Source: Bacteroidales bacterium
Lineage (GTDB): Bacteria; Bacteroidota; Bacteroidia; Bacteroidales; UBA932
Direction: 5' to 3'
Length of the DNA stretch: 64,000 nucleotides
Assembly (NCBI GenBank): GCA_017848635.1
Contig: JAFIHK010000010.1
Span: 5,539-69,538 of the forward strand
Below are positions 2,954 through 10,056 of this stretch, piece after piece (position 1 is the first letter of the stretch; each line of letters opens with the position of its first letter). The notes below the pieces were generated by a model, which was given only the letters and a program-made list of their open reading frames with translations, was not told the origin of the DNA and searched no databases. The position numbers were made by a program, and so were the translations under genes.

Positions 2954-4144
2954 ATGAAAATTGTAATTGCCTGTGACAAATTCAAGGGGAGTCTCACTTC
3001 ATCCGAGGCAAATGAGTCAATTAGCTGCGGATTTTTCGATTATTTTGAGAGAGAAAAAGTGTCTCCATTTGTAAAGAGGCCCGAGATATCATCTCTTATT
3101 ATGGCCGACGGAGGAGAAGGCACTCTGGAGATTTTCGCCGCAAATAAAAAACCGGGTGGAGGGGAGGTTGAAGAGATAATTCTGTCGGTAAAGGATCCGC
3201 TTTTGAGAGATATCAGTGCAAAATATCTTATGTGCGGGAGAAGAGCATATATTGAGATGGCGAAAGCATCGGGACTTGCCCTGCTGAACCCTTCGGAGTA
3301 TGACCCACTGCGGGCCTCAACTTACGGATTTGGGCAGATGATTGCCGATGCCATTGAGCGTGGTGCAGAGGAGATAGTGTGTGGAATAGGGGGGAGCGCT
3401 ACGAATGACGGCGGGGCGGGAATGCTTGCAGCGTTGGGGTTTGAGCTTGTTGGACGGAGTGGCTTCTCTGTCGAGCCCGGGGGTGTCGGATTGCTGGATC
3501 TGATTGAAATTCGATGTAGCCCCGCCTCCCGGAGTCTTGCCTCGATAAAGTTTATTACTGCTTGCGATGTTAATAATCCTCTCCTAGGTGCCGAAGGGGC
3601 AACCAGAGTCTATTCTGCACAAAAGGGTGCCGGAGAGCGCGAAATGGCCATTCTGGAGAGAGCTCTGGAGAACTTCTCCGGAGTTGTATGCGAGTTTGCC
3701 GGAGAGGATTTTAGAGGCCATCCCGGAGCAGGGGCTGCCGGAGGAACGGGGTTTGCGATGTTGTCGCTTTTGGGAGCTGAGCTGAGGCCAGGATGGCAGG
3801 TTATGGCTGAGGCGGCCGGCCTGGAGGAGCGAACATCCTCCTGCGATCTTGTGGTTACCGGGGAGGGGTCGCTCGACAAGCAGAGCCTGCACGGCAAGGT
3901 TGCAAGCGGGGTGGCAGATACCGCCGGCCGCCACAACAAACCCCTCTGGATCTTCTGTGGAGTAAACAGACTTGCCCCCGAAGAGGCAGAGTTGTTGGGG
4001 AAAAGTGTTAAAGTCTTCTCTCTTGAAGAAATCGCACCTGATCCTCAAACCTCTCTCAAAGAGGCTAAAGGACTTTTAAGAAAAATATCTGCACAAGCTG
4101 CAACTTTTTTAAAAGAGATTGAGTCTAACCTGCAAAACCAATAA
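2954..4144 (+). CDS. glycerate kinase
   Basis: The N-terminus MKIVIACDKFKGSLTSSEA, the GIGGSATNDGGAGMLAALG motif and the VVTGEGSLDKQSLHGK motif are typical of the GlxK/GarK family. I prefer the ATG at 2954 over the TTG at 2912 given in the ORF track. Confidence 0.9.
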   Translation: MKIVIACDKFKGSLTSSEANESISCGFFDYFEREKVSPFVKRPEISSLIMADGGEGTLEIFAANKKPGGGEVEEIILSVKDPLLRDISAKYLMCGRRAYIEMAKASGLALLNPSEYDPLRASTYGFGQMIADAIERGAEEIVCGIGGSATNDGGAGMLAALGFELVGRSGFSVEPGGVGLLDLIEIRCSPASRSLASIKFITACDVNNPLLGAEGATRVYSAQKGAGEREMAILERALENFSGVVCEFAGEDFRGHPGAGAAGGTGFAMLSLLGAELRPGWQVMAEAAGLEERTSSCDLVVTGEGSLDKQSLHGKVASGVADTAGRHNKPLWIFCGVNRLAPEEAELLGKSVKVFSLEEIAPDPQTSLKEAKGLLRKISAQAATFLKEIESNLQNQ

Positions 4145-4522: not shown

Positions 4523-5026
4523 GTGGCAAAGCCGGGCTTTGAACAACTTGTGAAAGAGAATCAGGAGCCGCTCAGGCGGTTCCTGTTGAATCTTTGCGGA
4601 GGGGACTCCTCCCTTAGCGACGACATTGCTCAGGAGGCGTTTCTTAAAGCATATCTGAACTTTTCATCGTTTAAGGGCGATGCAAAATTCTCAACATGGC
4701 TCTTCCGTATAGCTTGCAACTCATTTTATGACCACCTGAGAAAGAGGCAACTACCGGTTGAGGAGATGTCCCGTCCTGGAGTTATATACTCAGCCTCCTC
4801 AGAGCAGATTCACTCTCCAGGGCTCAGGAATCAGGAGCTCTATCTGGCCCTTAGCCAGTTAAAGATAGAGGAGAAAACAGCTATACTGCTCTTTTATATG
4901 GAGGATAGAACTCTTAAAGAGATTTCAAAAATTACCGAAATGCCCGAAAATACGGTAAAGTCACACCTCTTCAGGGCTAAATCAAAAATGTCGGACTATT
5001 TAAAAAGAATTGGATATGAACGATGA
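4523..5026 (+). CDS. ECF-type RNA polymerase sigma-70 factor
   Basis: Region 2 (DIAQEAFLKAY, FSTWLFRIACNSFYDHLRK) and a region 4 HTH (LKEISKITEMPENTVKSHLFRAK). GTG start. Confidence 0.85.
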   Translation: MAKPGFEQLVKENQEPLRRFLLNLCGGDSSLSDDIAQEAFLKAYLNFSSFKGDAKFSTWLFRIACNSFYDHLRKRQLPVEEMSRPGVIYSASSEQIHSPGLRNQELYLALSQLKIEEKTAILLFYMEDRTLKEISKITEMPENTVKSHLFRAKSKMSDYLKRIGYER

Positions 5027-5351
5027 GCAGATAAAGAAATTTTTCGGGGAGCATAAAGAGTCAATAGAGGACAGGGGTTTCGAAGCAAGGCTTTTGGAGA
5101 CAGTTAAATATCTGCCCAAACCAAAGAGAGCGGGGAGTTTTTCTCTTCGCGACAGAATCGTTGCAATATCAGCAATGACGGGGGTTCTCCTCTTTGTTCT
5201 ATTCGGAGGGGCCGATGCGTTAGTTTCGGGAATATTTACAACTCTATCTGCCGTAACTATAAAGCAGTTGTTCTCTCCCGAAATAATTGCGACGGCACTT
5301 TTCCTCTTTGTTCTTCTTTTCGGAATCGGACGCGCAGCATATAGCGATTAA
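5010..5351 (+). CDS. putative membrane-anchored anti-sigma factor
   Basis: Overlaps the 3' end of the sigma gene by 17 nt. Short cytoplasmic N-terminus followed by two TM segments. No recognisable catalytic motif. Confidence 0.45.
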   Translation: MDMNDEQIKKFFGEHKESIEDRGFEARLLETVKYLPKPKRAGSFSLRDRIVAISAMTGVLLFVLFGGADALVSGIFTTLSAVTIKQLFSPEIIATALFLFVLLFGIGRAAYSD

Positions 5352-5411
5352 AATTCTCTCCAATTATTAAAAAATTAAGGATTTAGAAAGGATTTTGATT
5401 TTTATAAGAAT

Positions 5412-5419
5412 TAATTTTG
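5412..5419 (+). promoter_or_regulatory. candidate Bacteroidota -7 promoter box (TAatTTTG)
   Basis: Matches the TAnnTTTG consensus 33 nt upstream of the ATG at 5452. Confidence 0.3.
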
Positions 5420-5451
5420 TATATCTATACATGCTAAAACTTATTTTTTAT

Positions 5452-7092
5452 ATGAAAAGATTTCTTGTTCTTATTTTAATAATTACTTCTTGTCAGAAAG
5501 TCGATGACGAAATGACTGAAGCAAATGACAGAAAAAATATTGCGGAAATTTCAAAGGCAATGAACTGGTTTCAGGCAAATGTTATTAAAAATCAGGTATC
5601 TAATGATCCTCAGGTAAAGAGTAATGGCATTTATAGTGAATGGGACCCTGTCTGGGAAGATGCCATTACAGATGAAAACAGTTACTATAAGGTTGTTGAG
5701 GTACCTCTGAAATTTTTGAAGCAGCGCGTATTTCTGATGAAGGAGTGTGAAAATAAATATCTGTCAAGTAATGATACCAGATACTTATATAATAATCAGA
5801 AGCTAGTTATTCAGACAAACAAAAGAACAGGAGAGATGTATGGCTTCTTCATGTCATTTGTTCCTTCTTTGAAATATATTGAGAGTAATACAAATGAGAA
5901 TAATTATCTAGATAAAAAAGACTTTGACGGATATCTTTTATTTACTAATTTCTCAGGTGATTTGATTAATGGCTGGAAATATAAGGATGGAAAAATTGCA
6001 AATAAACTGAAACCTATACTTAAGAAAAATACAGCAAATACAAAATCCAGTGAATATTATGTTTGTCAAACAACATATGATATCTATTATATTGTCTGGA
6101 GGAATAATAAAAACAATGATATTTCGATTCAAATCACAGGTATCGAGGAGAGTACGGTGTGCTTTGAACTTATGGATGCTTTGGAGAACAATGATGGAGG
6201 AGGTGGTTCTGGAGGTGAGCCCGGTTATGTTAATGAGATTTACACAGTTTCAGTTAATCAAAATGGAGGAGGAATAGTTGATGGGTCTGGTAATTATTTA
6301 GTTAATAGTACTGTGACAATAACAGCAACCCCTTCAAGCGGGTTTGTTTTTGGAGGTTGGATCGATAATACCTACCCAACAAAAGAGTTTATTTGTCACA
6401 GTAAAGCATATTCGTTTCAGATTAAGGATAATAGATCGTTCATAGCCTTTTTCTACTCTGATACATCGGCCTGTGCAAAGCTTGCCAAAGTAATTAATGA
6501 TGACTCTCTAAGTAATTATATAAGCAGATTGCGATCAAAAATGAAATATAGTAATTCTGTAGAGTATGGAGATTTAAGAAGAATAGACGGAAGCCTGTAT
6601 CCAAAAAACGGCCAGGAACATAGTTCTTCATTTGTTTTAGAAAATGGTGTAAAATACACTGAATCACATCACACGCACCCAAGTGGCTGCAATGTCCCAA
6701 GCGGAAAGGATATCATCGCTTTAAAAAAATTATATATGAAAGGGGCAATGTATAACGTAAATGATTTTAAATATGGCATAATTACCGATTCATCAGGAGC
6801 GTGTATTATCCAGATTGAAAATGAGTCTTTGTTCAGTAATTATATTCAGAAAAACATGGTAGATGAAGATTCTTATAATGATAATTATTTAGCATACATA
6901 ATAAATGGCGAAGAAGGAGGAGATGGAACAAAGGGAGTAATATTTAGAATTTTAAATAAATTGGAGGGGTCTGGATTAAAAATTATATCATCAACGATGT
7001 TTAACAATAATGATGATAAAAGAATAGAGCAGTGGAACGAATTAACATTAGATAACAATCAGCTGTATTATAAAAACTGTATAAATTTATGA
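5452..7092 (+). CDS. exported lipoprotein with a Gly-rich linker, a Listeria-Bacteroides (InlB B-type) repeat and a C-terminal JAB/MPN+ (JAMM) metallopeptidase-like domain
   Basis: Lipobox MKRFLVLILIITSC at the ATG at 5452. NDGGGGSGGEPG linker. YTVSVNQNGGGIVDGSGNYLVNSTVTITATPSSGFVFGGWID repeat. A complete H-x-H-x7-S-x2-D motif (HTHPSGCNVPSGKD) lies downstream of a Glu (VEYGD). Confidence 0.75.
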   Translation: MKRFLVLILIITSCQKVDDEMTEANDRKNIAEISKAMNWFQANVIKNQVSNDPQVKSNGIYSEWDPVWEDAITDENSYYKVVEVPLKFLKQRVFLMKECENKYLSSNDTRYLYNNQKLVIQTNKRTGEMYGFFMSFVPSLKYIESNTNENNYLDKKDFDGYLLFTNFSGDLINGWKYKDGKIANKLKPILKKNTANTKSSEYYVCQTTYDIYYIVWRNNKNNDISIQITGIEESTVCFELMDALENNDGGGGSGGEPGYVNEIYTVSVNQNGGGIVDGSGNYLVNSTVTITATPSSGFVFGGWIDNTYPTKEFICHSKAYSFQIKDNRSFIAFFYSDTSACAKLAKVINDDSLSNYISRLRSKMKYSNSVEYGDLRRIDGSLYPKNGQEHSSSFVLENGVKYTESHHTHPSGCNVPSGKDIIALKKLYMKGAMYNVNDFKYGIITDSSGACIIQIENESLFSNYIQKNMVDEDSYNDNYLAYIINGEEGGDGTKGVIFRILNKLEGSGLKIISSTMFNNNDDKRIEQWNELTLDNNQLYYKNCINL

Positions 7093-7631
7093 AAAGATTG
7101 ATTTTTGTGCTATCTCTGATATTAGTGTCATCGGGGATACAATCGCAAGGCTATACAGCCAATCTTGACTTCTTTGTAGGGACATGGAAGTATATAAATG
7201 AAGCAACAAACGAAGAGTTTACTCTTAAACTTAGAAAATCGGCATATATAAATCCGTTAGACAAATACCAAGACGAAAAGGCATGTCTTGTAGGTGCATA
7301 CATCTATATATTGAATGGAGATATAATTACAGATACAATGAATGAGTTTGGATCCGATAAATATGCACTTAAAATGCCCATTATGGCAACAAATTTTGTC
7401 CGTAATATTTCCAAGCTTGATTCTCAGAAATTGCGACTAACATTTAATGATCGCAAATACAACAAGAATACTCTAAGCAGCTCTCTGGAAATTGTCTCCA
7501 CCTCTCCTGCAAAGATCCGCTGGACATTGACTGAGGATGAAGGAGAGGAGGTCTATTCACCCGGTGAGACGATCAAGCCAAATGGATTTTCAGTTCCTGT
7601 AAATATGGTTCTCACAAAAGTTTCAGAGTAG
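7089..7631 (+). CDS. secreted small protein, paralogue 1 of 4 (lipocalin-like GTW motif)
   Basis: SPase I signal peptide (VSSGIQS/QG). Conserved DFFVGTWKYINE N-terminus and SPAKI.W.LTEDEGEEVYSPGETIKP.GFSVPVNM.LTKVSE C-terminus. The start overlaps the upstream stop (ATGA). Confidence 0.75.
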   Translation: MKRLIFVLSLILVSSGIQSQGYTANLDFFVGTWKYINEATNEEFTLKLRKSAYINPLDKYQDEKACLVGAYIYILNGDIITDTMNEFGSDKYALKMPIMATNFVRNISKLDSQKLRLTFNDRKYNKNTLSSSLEIVSTSPAKIRWTLTEDEGEEVYSPGETIKPNGFSVPVNMVLTKVSE

Positions 7632-7681
7632 AACCGTGAGGTAGAAACTACATTTGAACATTTGCATAGATTTATGAGAAA

Positions 7682-8224
7682 ATGAGAAAAATAGTATTTA
7701 TTCTATTCCTGATGCTGCTCTCATCGGAGATACGATCGCAGGGCTATACAGCCAATCTGGATTTTTTCGTCGGAACCTGGATATACACAAATGAAGTTAC
7801 CAATGAAGAGTTTACACTTAAACTTAGAAAATCGGTATATATAAATCCGTTAGATAAATACCAGGACGAAGAAGCTTGTCTTGTAGGAGTGTACACCTAC
7901 AAAGTGAATGGAATAATAGTTACAAATACAATGGATGAATTTGGATCCGATATACATGCGCTTAAAATGCCTGTTATAGCAACAAATTTTGTGCGAGATA
8001 TTTCCAAGCTTAATTCTCAGAAATTGTGGCTTATGTTTAACGATCGTAAATATAATAAATATACACTGAGTAGTTCTCTGGAGATTGTATCCGTCTCTCC
8101 AGCCAAGATTCATTGGGTATTGACCGAAGATGAGGGGGAGGAGGTATATTCGCCTGGAGAGACGATAAAACCGTCGGGATTTTCGGTGCCGGTCAATATG
8201 ATTTTAACGAAAGTTTCAGAATAG
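7682..8224 (+). CDS. secreted small protein, paralogue 2 of 4
   Basis: Same length and architecture as paralogue 1. Conserved ends with a divergent centre. Confidence 0.75.
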   Translation: MRKIVFILFLMLLSSEIRSQGYTANLDFFVGTWIYTNEVTNEEFTLKLRKSVYINPLDKYQDEEACLVGVYTYKVNGIIVTNTMDEFGSDIHALKMPVIATNFVRDISKLNSQKLWLMFNDRKYNKYTLSSSLEIVSVSPAKIHWVLTEDEGEEVYSPGETIKPSGFSVPVNMILTKVSE

Positions 8225-8306
8225 AAAGGAAGCTGGAAATTATCTTTTGTGCCTTGGTGTATGGTCTGCCGGATTTCGTTAAGTAAATTAATAGTTGTAA
8301 GAATTT

Positions 8307-8822
8307 ATGAAAAAAATGATTATCATATTATCTCTGATTTTAGTGTCATCAGGGATAAAATCACAGGGCTATACAACAAATCTTGACTTCTTTGCCGGGA
8401 CTTGGCAGTATATAAATGAAACAACTAACGAAGAGTTTACTCTAATACTTAAGAAATCAGTATATATAAATGAAGAAGAAATTGCATGTCTAGTAGGGGT
8501 ATACACCTATAAGGTTAATGGAGCTGTAGTTACAGATACAATGGATGAGTTTGTGTTAAATAAATATGCACTGAAAATGCCAGTAATTATTCGAGAAATG
8601 GCGATATCGGATTCTAATAAATTCAGGTTAATGATAAATGATCGTAAATTTAATAAGTTTACAGTCGGGAGCGTAATTGAAATTGTATCCACCTCTCCTG
8701 CAAAGATCCACTGGACATTGACCGAAGATGAGGGGGAGGAGGTATATTCGCCTGGAGAGACGATAAAACCGTCGGGATTTTCGGTGCCGGTCAATATGAT
8801 TTTAACGAAAGTTTCAGAATAG
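8307..8822 (+). CDS. secreted small protein, paralogue 3 of 4 (shorter, internal deletions)
   Basis: Lacks the PLDKYQDE segment of paralogues 1 and 2. Its last ~105 nt are identical to those of paralogue 2. Confidence 0.75.
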   Translation: MKKMIIILSLILVSSGIKSQGYTTNLDFFAGTWQYINETTNEEFTLILKKSVYINEEEIACLVGVYTYKVNGAVVTDTMDEFVLNKYALKMPVIIREMAISDSNKFRLMINDRKFNKFTVGSVIEIVSTSPAKIHWTLTEDEGEEVYSPGETIKPSGFSVPVNMILTKVSE

Positions 8823-8904
8823 AAAGGAAGCTGGAAATTATCTTTTGTGCTTTGGTGCATGGTCTGCCGGATTTCGTTAAGTAAATTAATAGTTGTATGA
8901 ATTT

Positions 8905-9432
8905 ATGAAAAAATTGATAATCATATTATCCTTGATAGTAATGTCTTCAGGGATAAAATCACAGGGCTATACAGCTAATCTTGACTTTTTTGTTGGGACA
9001 TGGAAGTATATAAATGAAGCAACAAACGAAGAGTTTATACTAAAACTTAGGAAATCAGTATACTTAACTAGATATGAAATCGCCTGTCTAGTTGGAATAT
9101 ACATGTATAAAGTTAATGGAGATGTGGTAATAAATACAATGGATGAATTTGATTCAGATAAATATGCTCTAGATATGCCCGTTATGGCAACAAATTTTGT
9201 ACTTGATAGATCATTGCTCAATTCCCAGAAGCTGAGAATAATGTTCGATGATCGTAAATATAATAAATATACAATGAGTAGTTCTCTGGAGATTGTATCC
9301 GTCTCTCCAGCCAAGATTCATTGGGTATTGACCGAAGATGAGGGTGATATAGTATATTTGCCTGGAGAGACAGTAAAACCGTCGGGATTTTCGGTGCCGG
9401 TCAATATGATTTTAACGAAAGTATCAGAATAG
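8905..9432 (+). CDS. secreted small protein, paralogue 4 of 4
   Basis: The ATG at 8905 sits exactly one 598-nt repeat period after the ATG of paralogue 3. The TTG at 8893 in the ORF track is probably not the start. The 3' end overlaps the rnhB stop convergently. Confidence 0.72.
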   Translation: MKKLIIILSLIVMSSGIKSQGYTANLDFFVGTWKYINEATNEEFILKLRKSVYLTRYEIACLVGIYMYKVNGDVVINTMDEFDSDKYALDMPVMATNFVLDRSLLNSQKLRIMFDDRKYNKYTMSSSLEIVSVSPAKIHWVLTEDEGDIVYLPGETVKPSGFSVPVNMILTKVSE

Positions 9433-10056
9433 GAGAGGATCCGGCAGGAGTTTGTAGGATTTGCGATGATACGGAGAGATTCCGAACTCCGCTATTGCCC
9501 TACGGTGGTTGGCGGTAGGGTAGGCCATATTCCTATCCCATCCGTATTGAGGAAACTCCTTTGCTATTTTGTGCATATACTCATCTCTGTGGGTCTTTGC
9601 CAATACCGATGCTGCGGCTATAGAGGCGTAGAGAGAGTCCCCTTTGACGATACATTTGTGCGGAATATCTTTATATGAGATAAAACGGTTCCCGTCGATA
9701 ATAAGGAAGCCCGGCATTTGGGAGAGCTTCTCCACAGCCATCTGCATGGCAAGGATTGATGCTCTGAGAATATTGATTTCATCTATTTTTTCAGCTTCTA
9801 CCGAGGCAACAGCCCATATACTGTTTTTTTCAATATACTCTCTGAGAAGATCTCTCTGTTTAAGCGAGAGCTGTTTAGAGTCATTCAGCATCGGATGGTT
9901 GAAGCCCTCCGGAAGTATTACTGCTGAGGCAAAAACCGGACCTGCCAGCGCTCCCCTCCCCGCTTCGTCGCAACCGGCCTCTGTATATTGATTCTGGAAT
10001 CGGGTAAATAGATCTTTACGCTCTTTCATCTTGAAATTTTGGGCCAAATTACTCAA
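9424..10056 (-). CDS. rnhB: ribonuclease HII
   Basis: GCDEAGRGALAGPVFASAV catalytic motif, IIDGN motif and SIAAASVLAK motif. Confidence 0.93.
   Translation of the reverse strand: MSNLAQNFKMKERKDLFTRFQNQYTEAGCDEAGRGALAGPVFASAVILPEGFNHPMLNDSKQLSLKQRDLLREYIEKNSIWAVASVEAEKIDEINILRASILAMQMAVEKLSQMPGFLIIDGNRFISYKDIPHKCIVKGDSLYASIAAASVLAKTHRDEYMHKIAKEFPQYGWDRNMAYPTANHRRAIAEFGISPYHRKSYKLLPDPLLF

Follow-up and report, generated by a model that had tools for sequence, protein, structure and literature searches.

What does a JAB/JAMM peptidase domain do at the end of an exported lipoprotein, and why is its gene followed by a row of genes for small secreted proteins? The question is raised by a cassette of five genes on contig JAFIHK010000010.1 (assembly GCA_017848635.1) of a Bacteroidales bacterium (UBA932). 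We analysed positions 5,539-69,538 of this contig, a stretch of 64,000 nt that is called the window here; all coordinates given without a locus name count from its first nucleotide. The cassette lies on one strand (+) in a low-GC stretch of the window and consists of a lipoprotein gene (5452-7092, 546 aa), whose product ends in the JAB/JAMM domain (the head), and four genes for proteins of the DUF6705 family. Our results show that pairing with DUF6705 is a family-wide rule for this JAB head. The reading we favour, and hold to be somewhat better than evenly probable, is that the cassette encodes a peptidase toxin that acts in the cell envelope, together with exported proteins that confer immunity.

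DUF6705 genes follow the JAB gene in different lineages

Conserved co-occurrence of the two families in other genomes had been set beforehand as a test, and it was found from both sides, in 9 of 9 loci seeded on the JAB gene and in 19 of 24 seeded on DUF6705. In the nine informative JAB-seeded loci one to four DUF6705 copies lie directly 3' of the JAB gene. The gap between the JAB stop and the DUF6705 start ranges from a 4-nt overlap to 17 nt, and the arrangement holds down to members of the head family that match at E 1e-6. Genes next to the pair differ in each lineage carrying it. Two contigs (L021 and L023) end at the JAB gene and are uninformative for the count. Downstream of the JAB gene there are three copies in each of L001 and L017, which belong to the lineage of the window, two in a pig-gut Bacteroidales lineage (L007), two behind a JAB remnant (L019) and four in a locus with a head at E 2e-6 (L050). 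Single copies are found in two Bacteroidales metagenome-assembled genomes (L012 and L015, in the latter fused to repeats), in L020 (P0034), in L051 (P0061) and in Elizabethkingia anophelis (L022, head at E 1e-8), where the cassette lies beside an integrase.

The scan seeded on DUF6705 covered 26 metagenome loci, which were scored with hidden Markov models (HMMs) built here and then read; two of them were too short upstream. A JAB head or a remnant of one adjoins DUF6705 in 19 of the 24 informative loci. The remaining five are L025, with two copies after atpA/atpG, L047, with one copy between housekeeping genes, L027, which has no JAB head upstream of the DUF6705 gene, L033, which is frameshifted, and L029, to which we return below. 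The earlier note on this DNA, made from the letters alone, had named as a refuting case that the small proteins could be a housekeeping family unlinked to JAB genes; with 19 of 24 loci beside a head or its remnant, this is not what the family looks like. A genome scan with DUF6705 patterns gave three loci only, and one of these is an N-terminally truncated DUF6705 pseudogene by a gene that is peroxiredoxin-like (Bcp-type) when judged by eye.

Small open reading frames (ORFs) without a PF20448 match stand after DUF6705 in two of the loci, L012:1587-2126 (179 aa, with a signal-peptide-like start) and L050:10977-11492 (171 aa). They could be very divergent DUF6705 copies or another partner family.

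The head is a predicted JAB/JAMM peptidase of an unnamed clade

The C-terminal 211 aa of the window protein (residues 336-546, 6457-7089) carry HTHPSGCNVPSGKD, which is an exact HxH-x7-S-xx-D JAMM motif. The catalytic set is E371, H407-T-H409, S417 and D420. In an alignment of 93 full-length members E371, H407, H409 and D420 are the only invariant columns, and S417, Cys341 and Cys543 are conserved at 90% or above. Cys341 and Cys543 flank the head at either side, which fits folding outside the cytoplasm, and the two may form a disulfide.

With an exhaustive profile search, 291 clusters with the head (clustered at 50% identity) were obtained at E<=1e-3, 60 of them at E<=1e-10, ranging from sediment Bacteroidales and gut lineages to Elizabethkingia. 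In essentially all of the 150 matches listed the head is C-terminal, and the proteins are mostly 200-620 aa long. Word-index searches, which returned 4, 11 and 6 proteins, had given the impression of a tiny family, and this was overturned by the exhaustive search. The window head scores below the Pfam cut-offs of both Prok-JAB (13.8 bits, cut-off 25) and RadC (13.7 bits, cut-off 22.1). Prok-JAB is matched by 19 of the 93 relatives at E<=0.01, with a best E of 2e-6, and sequence matches of the head in the PDB are motif-only (E 0.2-1). Toxin-JAB1, DUF4329 and RHS gave no match for the window head at E<=10 and none for the 93 members at E<=0.01. Judged by these comparisons, the window head is a divergent JAB clade without a name.

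The full-length protein was modelled with AlphaFold2 (AF2) from the 93-sequence alignment; an earlier model of the head from five sequences was unusable, with a predicted local distance difference test score (pLDDT) of 68 and a catalytic region below 50. Mean pLDDT of the present model is 83, and most of the head lies at 86-97. Foldseek searches against the PDB retrieved CSN5 (probability 0.98), RadC (probability 0.97, template modelling (TM) score 0.50) and the Jab1/MPN domain of Prp8, with E-values all at or above 0.02. Against BFVD, phage JAB/MPN proteins were found at E 2e-4 to 4e-3 and probability 0.99-1.0, and the compact JAB-only matches have TM scores of 0.45-0.59 and a root-mean-square deviation of 3-5 Å. 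A JAB fold of the C-terminal domain, proposed earlier, is thus borne out: the AF2 model and Foldseek agree on the JAB/MPN (deaminase-like) fold. From motif, alignment and model together we predict that the head is an active zinc JAB/JAMM peptidase with its catalytic residues intact.

Similarity of the head to phage JAB proteins and to Citrobacter BubCD in the Foldseek searches fits yet another reading, an anti-phage or mobile-element system with a JAB domain, either of the Cap3 type of cyclic-oligonucleotide-based anti-phage signalling systems (CBASS) or with ubiquitin-like conjugation. A PADLOC match named 'JAB' (motif-level, E 0.0075, 13.7 bits) and the one cassette that stands beside an integrase would go with it. 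It is important to note, however, that both partners are predicted to be exported, and that JAB domains known from defence systems work in the cytoplasm. According to Zhang et al. 2012 (PMC3482391), the prokaryotic JAB domains known previously were intracellular. The neighbourhoods examined contain no genes for E1/E2, a cyclase or ubiquitin-like proteins and no other defence partner genes, and PADLOC gave only the motif-level JAB match. DUF6705 matches no PADLOC model, and a scan of viral contigs gave no relative of it. We consider a defence function of this kind highly improbable.

The carrier is a lipoprotein with a surface-export signal

The ORF of the large gene spans 5395-7092, and the likely start is the ATG at 5452. 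The encoded N-terminus reads MKRFLVLILIITSC followed by QKVDDE, and contains a lipobox, I-T-S-C, with the cysteine at position 14; signal peptide, lipobox and the surface-export signal C-QKVDDE, all read from sequence, take up 5452-5511. In Bacteroidota the lipoprotein export signal (LES) has QKDDE as its consensus and is optimal as C-X-K-(D/E)2-X (PMC5080379). C14-QKVDDE of the window protein is of this type, that is, a lipobox Cys followed by a K/Q-(D/E)2-type stretch, although a Val is inserted with respect to the consensus and the spacing is therefore not optimal. By a heuristic, 63 of the 93 full-length family members are lipoproteins, and 44 of these 63 have at least two acidic residues at +2..+7. 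In a minority the signal peptide is a plain one or the N-terminus is Cys-rich. From these signals the window JAB protein is predicted to lie on the cell surface, and probably on outer-membrane vesicles too.

Behind the export signal comes a family-specific N-terminal domain (residues ~22-243, 5515-6180). Residues 22-243 have no Pfam or NCBIfam match, and none of the window cassette proteins searched has an NCBIfam match. The AF2 model of this domain is beta-rich, with pLDDT mostly 83-95 and dips near residues 51-60 and 191-200, and Foldseek found no significant structural match for it in the PDB. When the N-termini of the family are clustered by BLAST, 61 of 89 fall in one group and the others in 16 small groups, the JAB head being carried on at least 17 such groups. 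A Gly-rich flexible linker follows, NNDGGGGSGGEPG (NNDGGGGSGGE; residues ~244-258, 6181-6225), with pLDDT <50; a Gly-rich stretch is kept in the family consensus. Between linker and head there is a divergent InlB B-repeat (residues 264-335, 6241-6456), recognised by Flg_new_2 (PF18998) at E 2.3e-11 and 43.9 bits (cut-off 23.6). It is the sole Pfam assignment in the protein and is matched by 18 of the 93 family members.

DUF6705 proteins are small, exported and under purifying selection

The four small proteins match PF20448 (DUF6705) over the whole model with 83.5-97.8 bits (cut-off 24.4), and all 40 relatives collected match the family too. Copy 1 (7089-7631, 180 aa, E 1.6e-25) is followed by copy 2 (7682-8224, 180 aa, E 8.9e-28), copy 3 (8307-8822, 171 aa, E 2.3e-23) and copy 4 (8905-9432, 175 aa, E 2.5e-27), all on the plus strand. 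Each protein has an N-terminal signal peptide that, as read from the sequence, ends in S-Q. The start of copy 1 overlaps the stop of the JAB gene in ATGA (7089-7092), and the end of copy 4 overlaps the convergent rnhB gene (9424-10056, minus strand). In this way the gene anatomy described in the earlier note (lipobox, Gly linker, repeat, C-terminal JAMM motif, four paralogues and ATGA) was recovered feature by feature. The four genes are tandem copies of a unit of 593-625 nt, with 60-89% identity in DNA and 69-79% in protein, which is far above chance. Omega of the four copies is 0.10-0.27, meaning purifying selection on all of them, and this indicates functional genes and not decaying duplicates.

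At the C-terminus DUF6705 has a conserved motif, FS[VI]P..[VI]LTKV. Free-standing members end 0-2 residues past it in the aligned loci; the tail of P0014 is longer. Calling the small proteins lipocalin-like, as had been done at first, is without support, since Lipocalin_4 appears at E 0.48 in 1 of the 40 members only. DUF6705 gave no PDB sequence match at E<=10, and among the 40 proteins there was no Imm65 or NTF2-type match at E<=1. We found no paper that mentions DUF6705.

Arrays are reshuffled and alleles are older than their surroundings

Between close relatives of the window, with 97-98.6% identity in the flanks, DUF6705 arrays differ in content and order. Copies 1-2-3-4 are found in the window and 1-2-4 in L001, where the copies are identical and copy 3 is absent. 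L017 has a new first copy, then one like copy 4 (95%) and then one like copy 3 (98%). Synonymous divergence (dS) between the window and L017 is 0.008 in rnhB, 0.012 in the helix-turn-helix (HTH) gene and 0.065 in the EF-G-like gene. In the JAB gene it is 0.41 for the N-terminal domain and 0.76 for the B-repeat plus head, and it reaches 1.19 in the first DUF6705 gene (81% identity), to be compared with 0.10-0.12 in the distal copies (3 and 4). Protein identity between the two loci likewise falls from 88-95% in the N-terminal domain to as little as 58-70% in the C-terminal half of the head. In the lineage of the window, therefore, the first DUF6705 copy has changed along with the head, and copies 3 and 4, the distal ones, have changed little. 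The pig-gut locus L007 and the remnant locus L019 give a similar picture: their flanking proteins are 97.5-100% identical, the DUF6705 copies 76% and 84%, and the head remnant 54%. On the evidence of these divergences an old allele, consisting of head and first DUF6705, is seen swapped into a young background. The high dS values point to age and recombination, not to positive selection.

Two genes upstream of the cassette (window 4523-5351) also stand out in this comparison, an extracytoplasmic function (ECF) sigma-70 gene with dS 0.22 and a gene for a DUF5056 membrane protein, which we take to be anti-sigma-like, with dS 0.75. With raised dS in these two genes and 0.008-0.065 downstream, the swapped allele seems to begin inside the sigma gene. 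The two regulators may be functionally part of the cassette, in the window lineage only.

In L007 (7529-7799 and 10280-10616) and L019 (1605-1790 and 2678-2956) non-coding segments of ~95-280 nt flank the DUF6705 genes. They are repeated within and between both loci with 94-98% identity, and could be recombination substrates for array reshuffling.

JAB genes decay while DUF6705 genes stay intact

In L019 the JAB gene is cut to its last 103 codons, and two intact DUF6705 genes remain beside an IS110 transposase. L040, L041 and L026 have 3' head remnants of ~48 codons, preceded by stop codons, between DUF6705 genes. In L048 (1403-1834) the final ~45 residues of a JAB head follow a nucleotidyltransferase-like N-terminal part in one chimeric ORF, directly upstream of DUF6705. 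Decay is one-sided: JAB genes are broken and DUF6705 genes are intact. L024 and L031 have tandem head/DUF6705 units, and arrays of two to four DUF6705 genes occur in several lineages. Such arrays of remnants and DUF6705 genes are reminiscent of the units of toxin tip and immunity gene that lie displaced in cdi and rhs loci. As in polymorphic toxin systems, the putative toxin domain stands at the C-terminus, with the gene of a candidate immunity protein, DUF6705, immediately downstream, and there are orphan or displaced toxin-tip modules (L040, L041, L026, L024 and L031) as well as arrays of the candidate immunity genes. The early suggestion that the array of small diversified paralogues belongs to a conflict locus agrees well with shuffled arrays, old alleles and orphans by decayed JAB genes.

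The cassette also appears to move; its low GC content and, in L007, its place next to a candidate LysM-Tlde1 toxin are in line with this. In L022 (GCA_045760765.1, JBJDJO010000002.1, 320176-333549) a distant member of the JAB family, WP_407498219.1, and its DUF6705 partner are encoded immediately next to a tyrosine integrase, and an HTH_17 gene lies upstream at a distance of a few genes. The arrangement points to an integrative element as carrier of the cassette in Elizabethkingia anophelis, a cultivable pathogen.

These data bear on the possibility that the pair protects its own producer. A surface JAB peptidase could act on host, dietary, environmental or own surface proteins, with DUF6705 as a periplasmic inhibitor during transit. 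Arrangements of this sort are known: periplasmic inhibitors are found beside serralysin-type metalloproteases (AprA/AprI, Inh) and staphostatins beside staphopains. Gene order, tight coupling and export of both partners fit this explanation equally well, and so do the constant architecture over 291 clusters and the lack of a delivery system linked to the locus; the LES, moreover, predicts an enzyme displayed outward. A pure inhibitor should, however, vanish with its protease, whereas we find intact DUF6705 genes by decayed JAB genes and among housekeeping genes. Three or four diverged inhibitors under purifying selection would be needless for one protease. Old alleles in near-identical backgrounds and reshuffled arrays point instead to conflict between strains. 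Taken together, we regard self-protection as rather unlikely.

Fusions and a replaced head

DUF6705 is in some loci part of a larger protein. Three diverged contigs encode proteins with the order signal peptide, DUF6705, InlB B-repeat and a second divergent JAB-like head (L024:1033-2436, L031:985-2403 and L035:426-1817). Of these second heads, that of L035 retains HxH, which those of L024 and L031 have lost, and another DUF6705-like gene comes after the fusion ORF in L024 and L035. The three proteins are only ~55% identical to one another, which means that the fusion is old. A different fusion, L015:7920-11033 (on a contig shared with L030), is a protein of 1037 aa with an N-terminal DUF6705 and ~850 aa of PKD-like repeats. 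Homology between DUF6705 and the N-terminal domain of the lipoprotein would have explained fusions, and was rejected (hhalign probability 4%). A type IX secretion system (T9SS) sorting signal at the C-terminal end of the L015 protein was suspected by eye, and Pfam did not confirm it. The DUF6705/JAB fusions argue for physical interaction of DUF6705 and the JAB head, in either sense.

Interaction would also be expected of a two-component surface enzyme, in which DUF6705 proteins serve as interchangeable adaptors, ligand binders or substrates of the JAB head, the arrays give different specificities and the fusions are the single-chain version. Besides the DUF6705/B-repeat/JAB fusions in three diverged contigs and the fusion to PKD-like repeats, strict pairing and the conserved motif FS[VI]P..[VI]LTKV at the C-terminus of DUF6705 are in line with this. 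The difficulty is one of compartments: for most heads the predicted place is outside the cell, but free DUF6705 carries a Sec signal only, with no surface or T9SS signal. Because the free proteins end 0-2 residues past the motif (P0014 excepted), there is usually nothing to process. In addition HxH is lost in two of the three fused heads, and orphan DUF6705 genes by JAB remnants are more easily explained by protection that was retained than by a partner that was lost. An adaptor or substrate role is, in our estimate, distinctly unlikely.

A single locus has another head on the same kind of carrier. In L029 (1-2250) an N-terminal domain of the family type (HMM E 2.5e-14; one frameshift, near nt 160) and a Gly linker are followed by Peptidase_C39_2 (E 1.3e-8) in place of JAB. 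Downstream follow a 158-aa signal-peptide protein that is not DUF6705 and matches no known family, and then an orphan DUF6705. This is the only head replacement found, no search seeded on the N-terminal domain having been made. A variable enzymatic head on an exported carrier, as it had been described in the earlier note, is suggested by this one case; otherwise the architecture of N-terminal domain, B-repeat and JAB is fairly constant.

About 570 nt upstream of the JAB/DUF6705 genes of L007 there is another pair of genes (5724-7430), for a 450-aa protein with LysM and Tlde1_dom (PF10908, E 5.6e-9) and, after it, a 107-aa ORF without a family. Judging from the domain match, the pair looks like a second candidate envelope-acting toxin/immunity unit, and the region like a small toxin island.

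A model for the action of the cassette

Under the reading that we favour, a peptidase toxin acting in the envelope with exported immunity proteins, the product of the large gene would leave the cytoplasm by Sec, receive its lipid at Cys14 and then be flipped to the cell surface, and would probably also get onto outer-membrane vesicles. Presenting or delivering the enzyme would be the task of its N-terminal domain and B-repeat, and the head at the C-terminus would be the active part and cut a peptide or isopeptide bond in an envelope target of neighbouring Bacteroidota. DUF6705 would reach the periplasm by its own signal peptide, and there bind and neutralise the head. The translationally coupled first DUF6705 would be the cognate antidote, and the further, diverged copies may protect against variant heads of relatives. 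Delivery by vesicles or surface contact is conceivable by analogy with the lipoprotein toxins called BSAPs (Bacteroidales secreted antimicrobial proteins; PMC12853789). Export of the DUF6705 partner speaks for a site of action outside the cytoplasm, and an argument of this kind can also be made for Tox-JAB-1, whose partner Imm65 is a lipoprotein (PMC3482391). Anatomy, intact catalytic residues, JAB fold, gene pairing and the pattern of evolution are seen in the data; surface exposure, toxicity, direct binding and inhibition, the substrate and the route of delivery are the parts of this model that we infer. Its wider form, in which such proteins are interbacterial toxins throughout the Bacteroidota that do without a secretion machine (a surface or vesicle lipoprotein with a JAB isopeptidase head, and DUF6705 as a new immunity family kept in arrays), is more tentative; we hold it to be possible, though on the doubtful side.

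Several results weigh against a toxin/immunity pair. The locus has no delivery apparatus linked to it, and a protease that comes with an inhibitor or adaptor of its own would account for pairing and arrays too. The high dS means old alleles exchanged by recombination and is no sign of positive selection as such, omega being <0.3. The architecture is mostly constant, head polymorphism amounting to one frameshifted example (L029). Finally, the presence of DUF6705 as the N-terminal domain of larger secreted proteins, with B-repeat and JAB or with PKD-like repeats, is unusual for an immunity protein.

Comparison with known toxin systems

It had been thought at first that the locus could not be mapped to a characterised system. 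That is too sweeping, since the lipoprotein carrier has precedents in the BSAPs (PMC12853789) and a related arrangement in Tox-JAB-1, whose immunity protein, Imm65, is an exported lipoprotein (PMC3482391). Like the window locus, Tox-JAB-1 has a divergent JAB head (E, HxH, S, D) at the C-terminus of an exported Bacteroidota protein and a strictly associated, exported downstream partner (Imm65 carries a signal peptide as well as a lipobox), and in both cases function is predicted from genomics alone. The carrier of Tox-JAB-1 is made of RHS repeats, whereas that of the window locus is a lipoprotein N-terminal domain with an InlB B-repeat. The lipid anchor is on the immunity protein in Tox-JAB-1/Imm65 and on the toxin candidate in the window locus. 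As the profile matches are missing, the window pair is neither Tox-JAB-1/Imm65 nor Tox-JAB-2 (DUF4329)/Imm-NTF2-2. Nuclease activity, which Zhang et al. proposed for Tox-JAB-1 (PMC3482391), is unlikely for the window head because its partner is exported. We found no experimental work on exported JAB toxins in the literature.

BSAPs are surface lipoprotein toxins of Bacteroidales which need the LES route for killing (PMC12853789). They and the CDC-like two-component toxins of Bacteroidota (PMC12853789, PMC11169675) share with the window locus a surface lipoprotein with LES and the lack of a dedicated injection machine, and strain-variable loci and, under our reading, narrow intraspecies targeting are further points in common. 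The difference is that these toxins are MACPF/CDC pore formers, while the window protein is a predicted metallopeptidase; Pfam gave no MACPF match in the window proteins or the 93 family members. Producers of BSAPs are known to resist by means of a variant receptor gene and not by a soluble inhibitor.

Myxococcus SitA toxins are lipoproteins with a lipobox and a C-terminal toxic domain, delivered by outer-membrane exchange, and have a SitI immunity gene downstream. They demonstrate that a lipoprotein can be a toxin carrier; SitA acts in the cytoplasm, however, and SitI is cytoplasmic. Delivery of SitA needs TraA/TraB, which to our knowledge are not known in Bacteroidota. In the serralysin family (AprA/AprI, Inh) an exported zinc protease stands next to a small signal-peptide inhibitor that acts in the periplasm. 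Unlike the window locus, serralysins have, as far as is known, a single inhibitor gene without orphans or arrays, a metzincin fold and secretion by a type I secretion system (T1SS). Serratia loci for the effectors Ssp1 and Ssp2 of a type VI secretion system (T6SS) have several paralogous copies of Rap immunity genes each. There, as in the window locus, an envelope-acting enzyme is followed by small signal-peptide immunity genes (PMC3533786). Rap immunity is located in the compartment where the toxin acts, as we propose for DUF6705. The window locus differs in having no T6SS genes or T6SS carrier, a JAB peptidase in place of an amidase and an unrelated immunity family. By analogy, then, the locus would work like a polymorphic toxin/immunity locus and like periplasm-acting T6SS effector/immunity pairs, with no RHS, T6SS or MACPF parts.

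Base composition and promoter-like motifs

GC content is 33-37% in the cassette, 41-47% directly downstream and up to 58% upstream. The glycerate kinase gene (window 3001-4000) has 51-58% GC, against ~40-45% around it. A promoter-like motif of the Bacteroidota -7 type, TAATTTTG, lies at 5412-5419 on the plus strand, 33 nt 5' of the ATG at 5452. The motif is slightly enriched in the window (74 seen, 54 expected), so that it is weak evidence for a promoter at this place. A motif scan found TACATTTG at 7649-7656, upstream of DUF6705 copy 2.

What the cassette may mean for Bacteroidota

The locus follows a familiar logic with new parts, namely its enzyme clade, partner family and carrier. If our reading is true, it would give a function to DUF6705, to the N-terminal domain and to this JAB clade. 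JAB/JAMM enzymes, which are known as cytoplasmic deubiquitinase-type peptidases, would be at work outside the cytoplasm, and the question becomes which bond of the envelope they cut. Should the wider form of the reading hold, an exported JAB peptidase toxin with a defined partner would be known for the first time, and the phylum would have its first enzymatic class of lipoprotein toxins. A cultivable carrier is available in Elizabethkingia anophelis (WP_407498219.1). Bacteroidota dominate guts and sediments, and competition at the strain level shapes their communities. To the pore-forming BSAP and CDC-like toxins of these bacteria the cassette would add a weapon that is enzymatic and borne by a lipoprotein.

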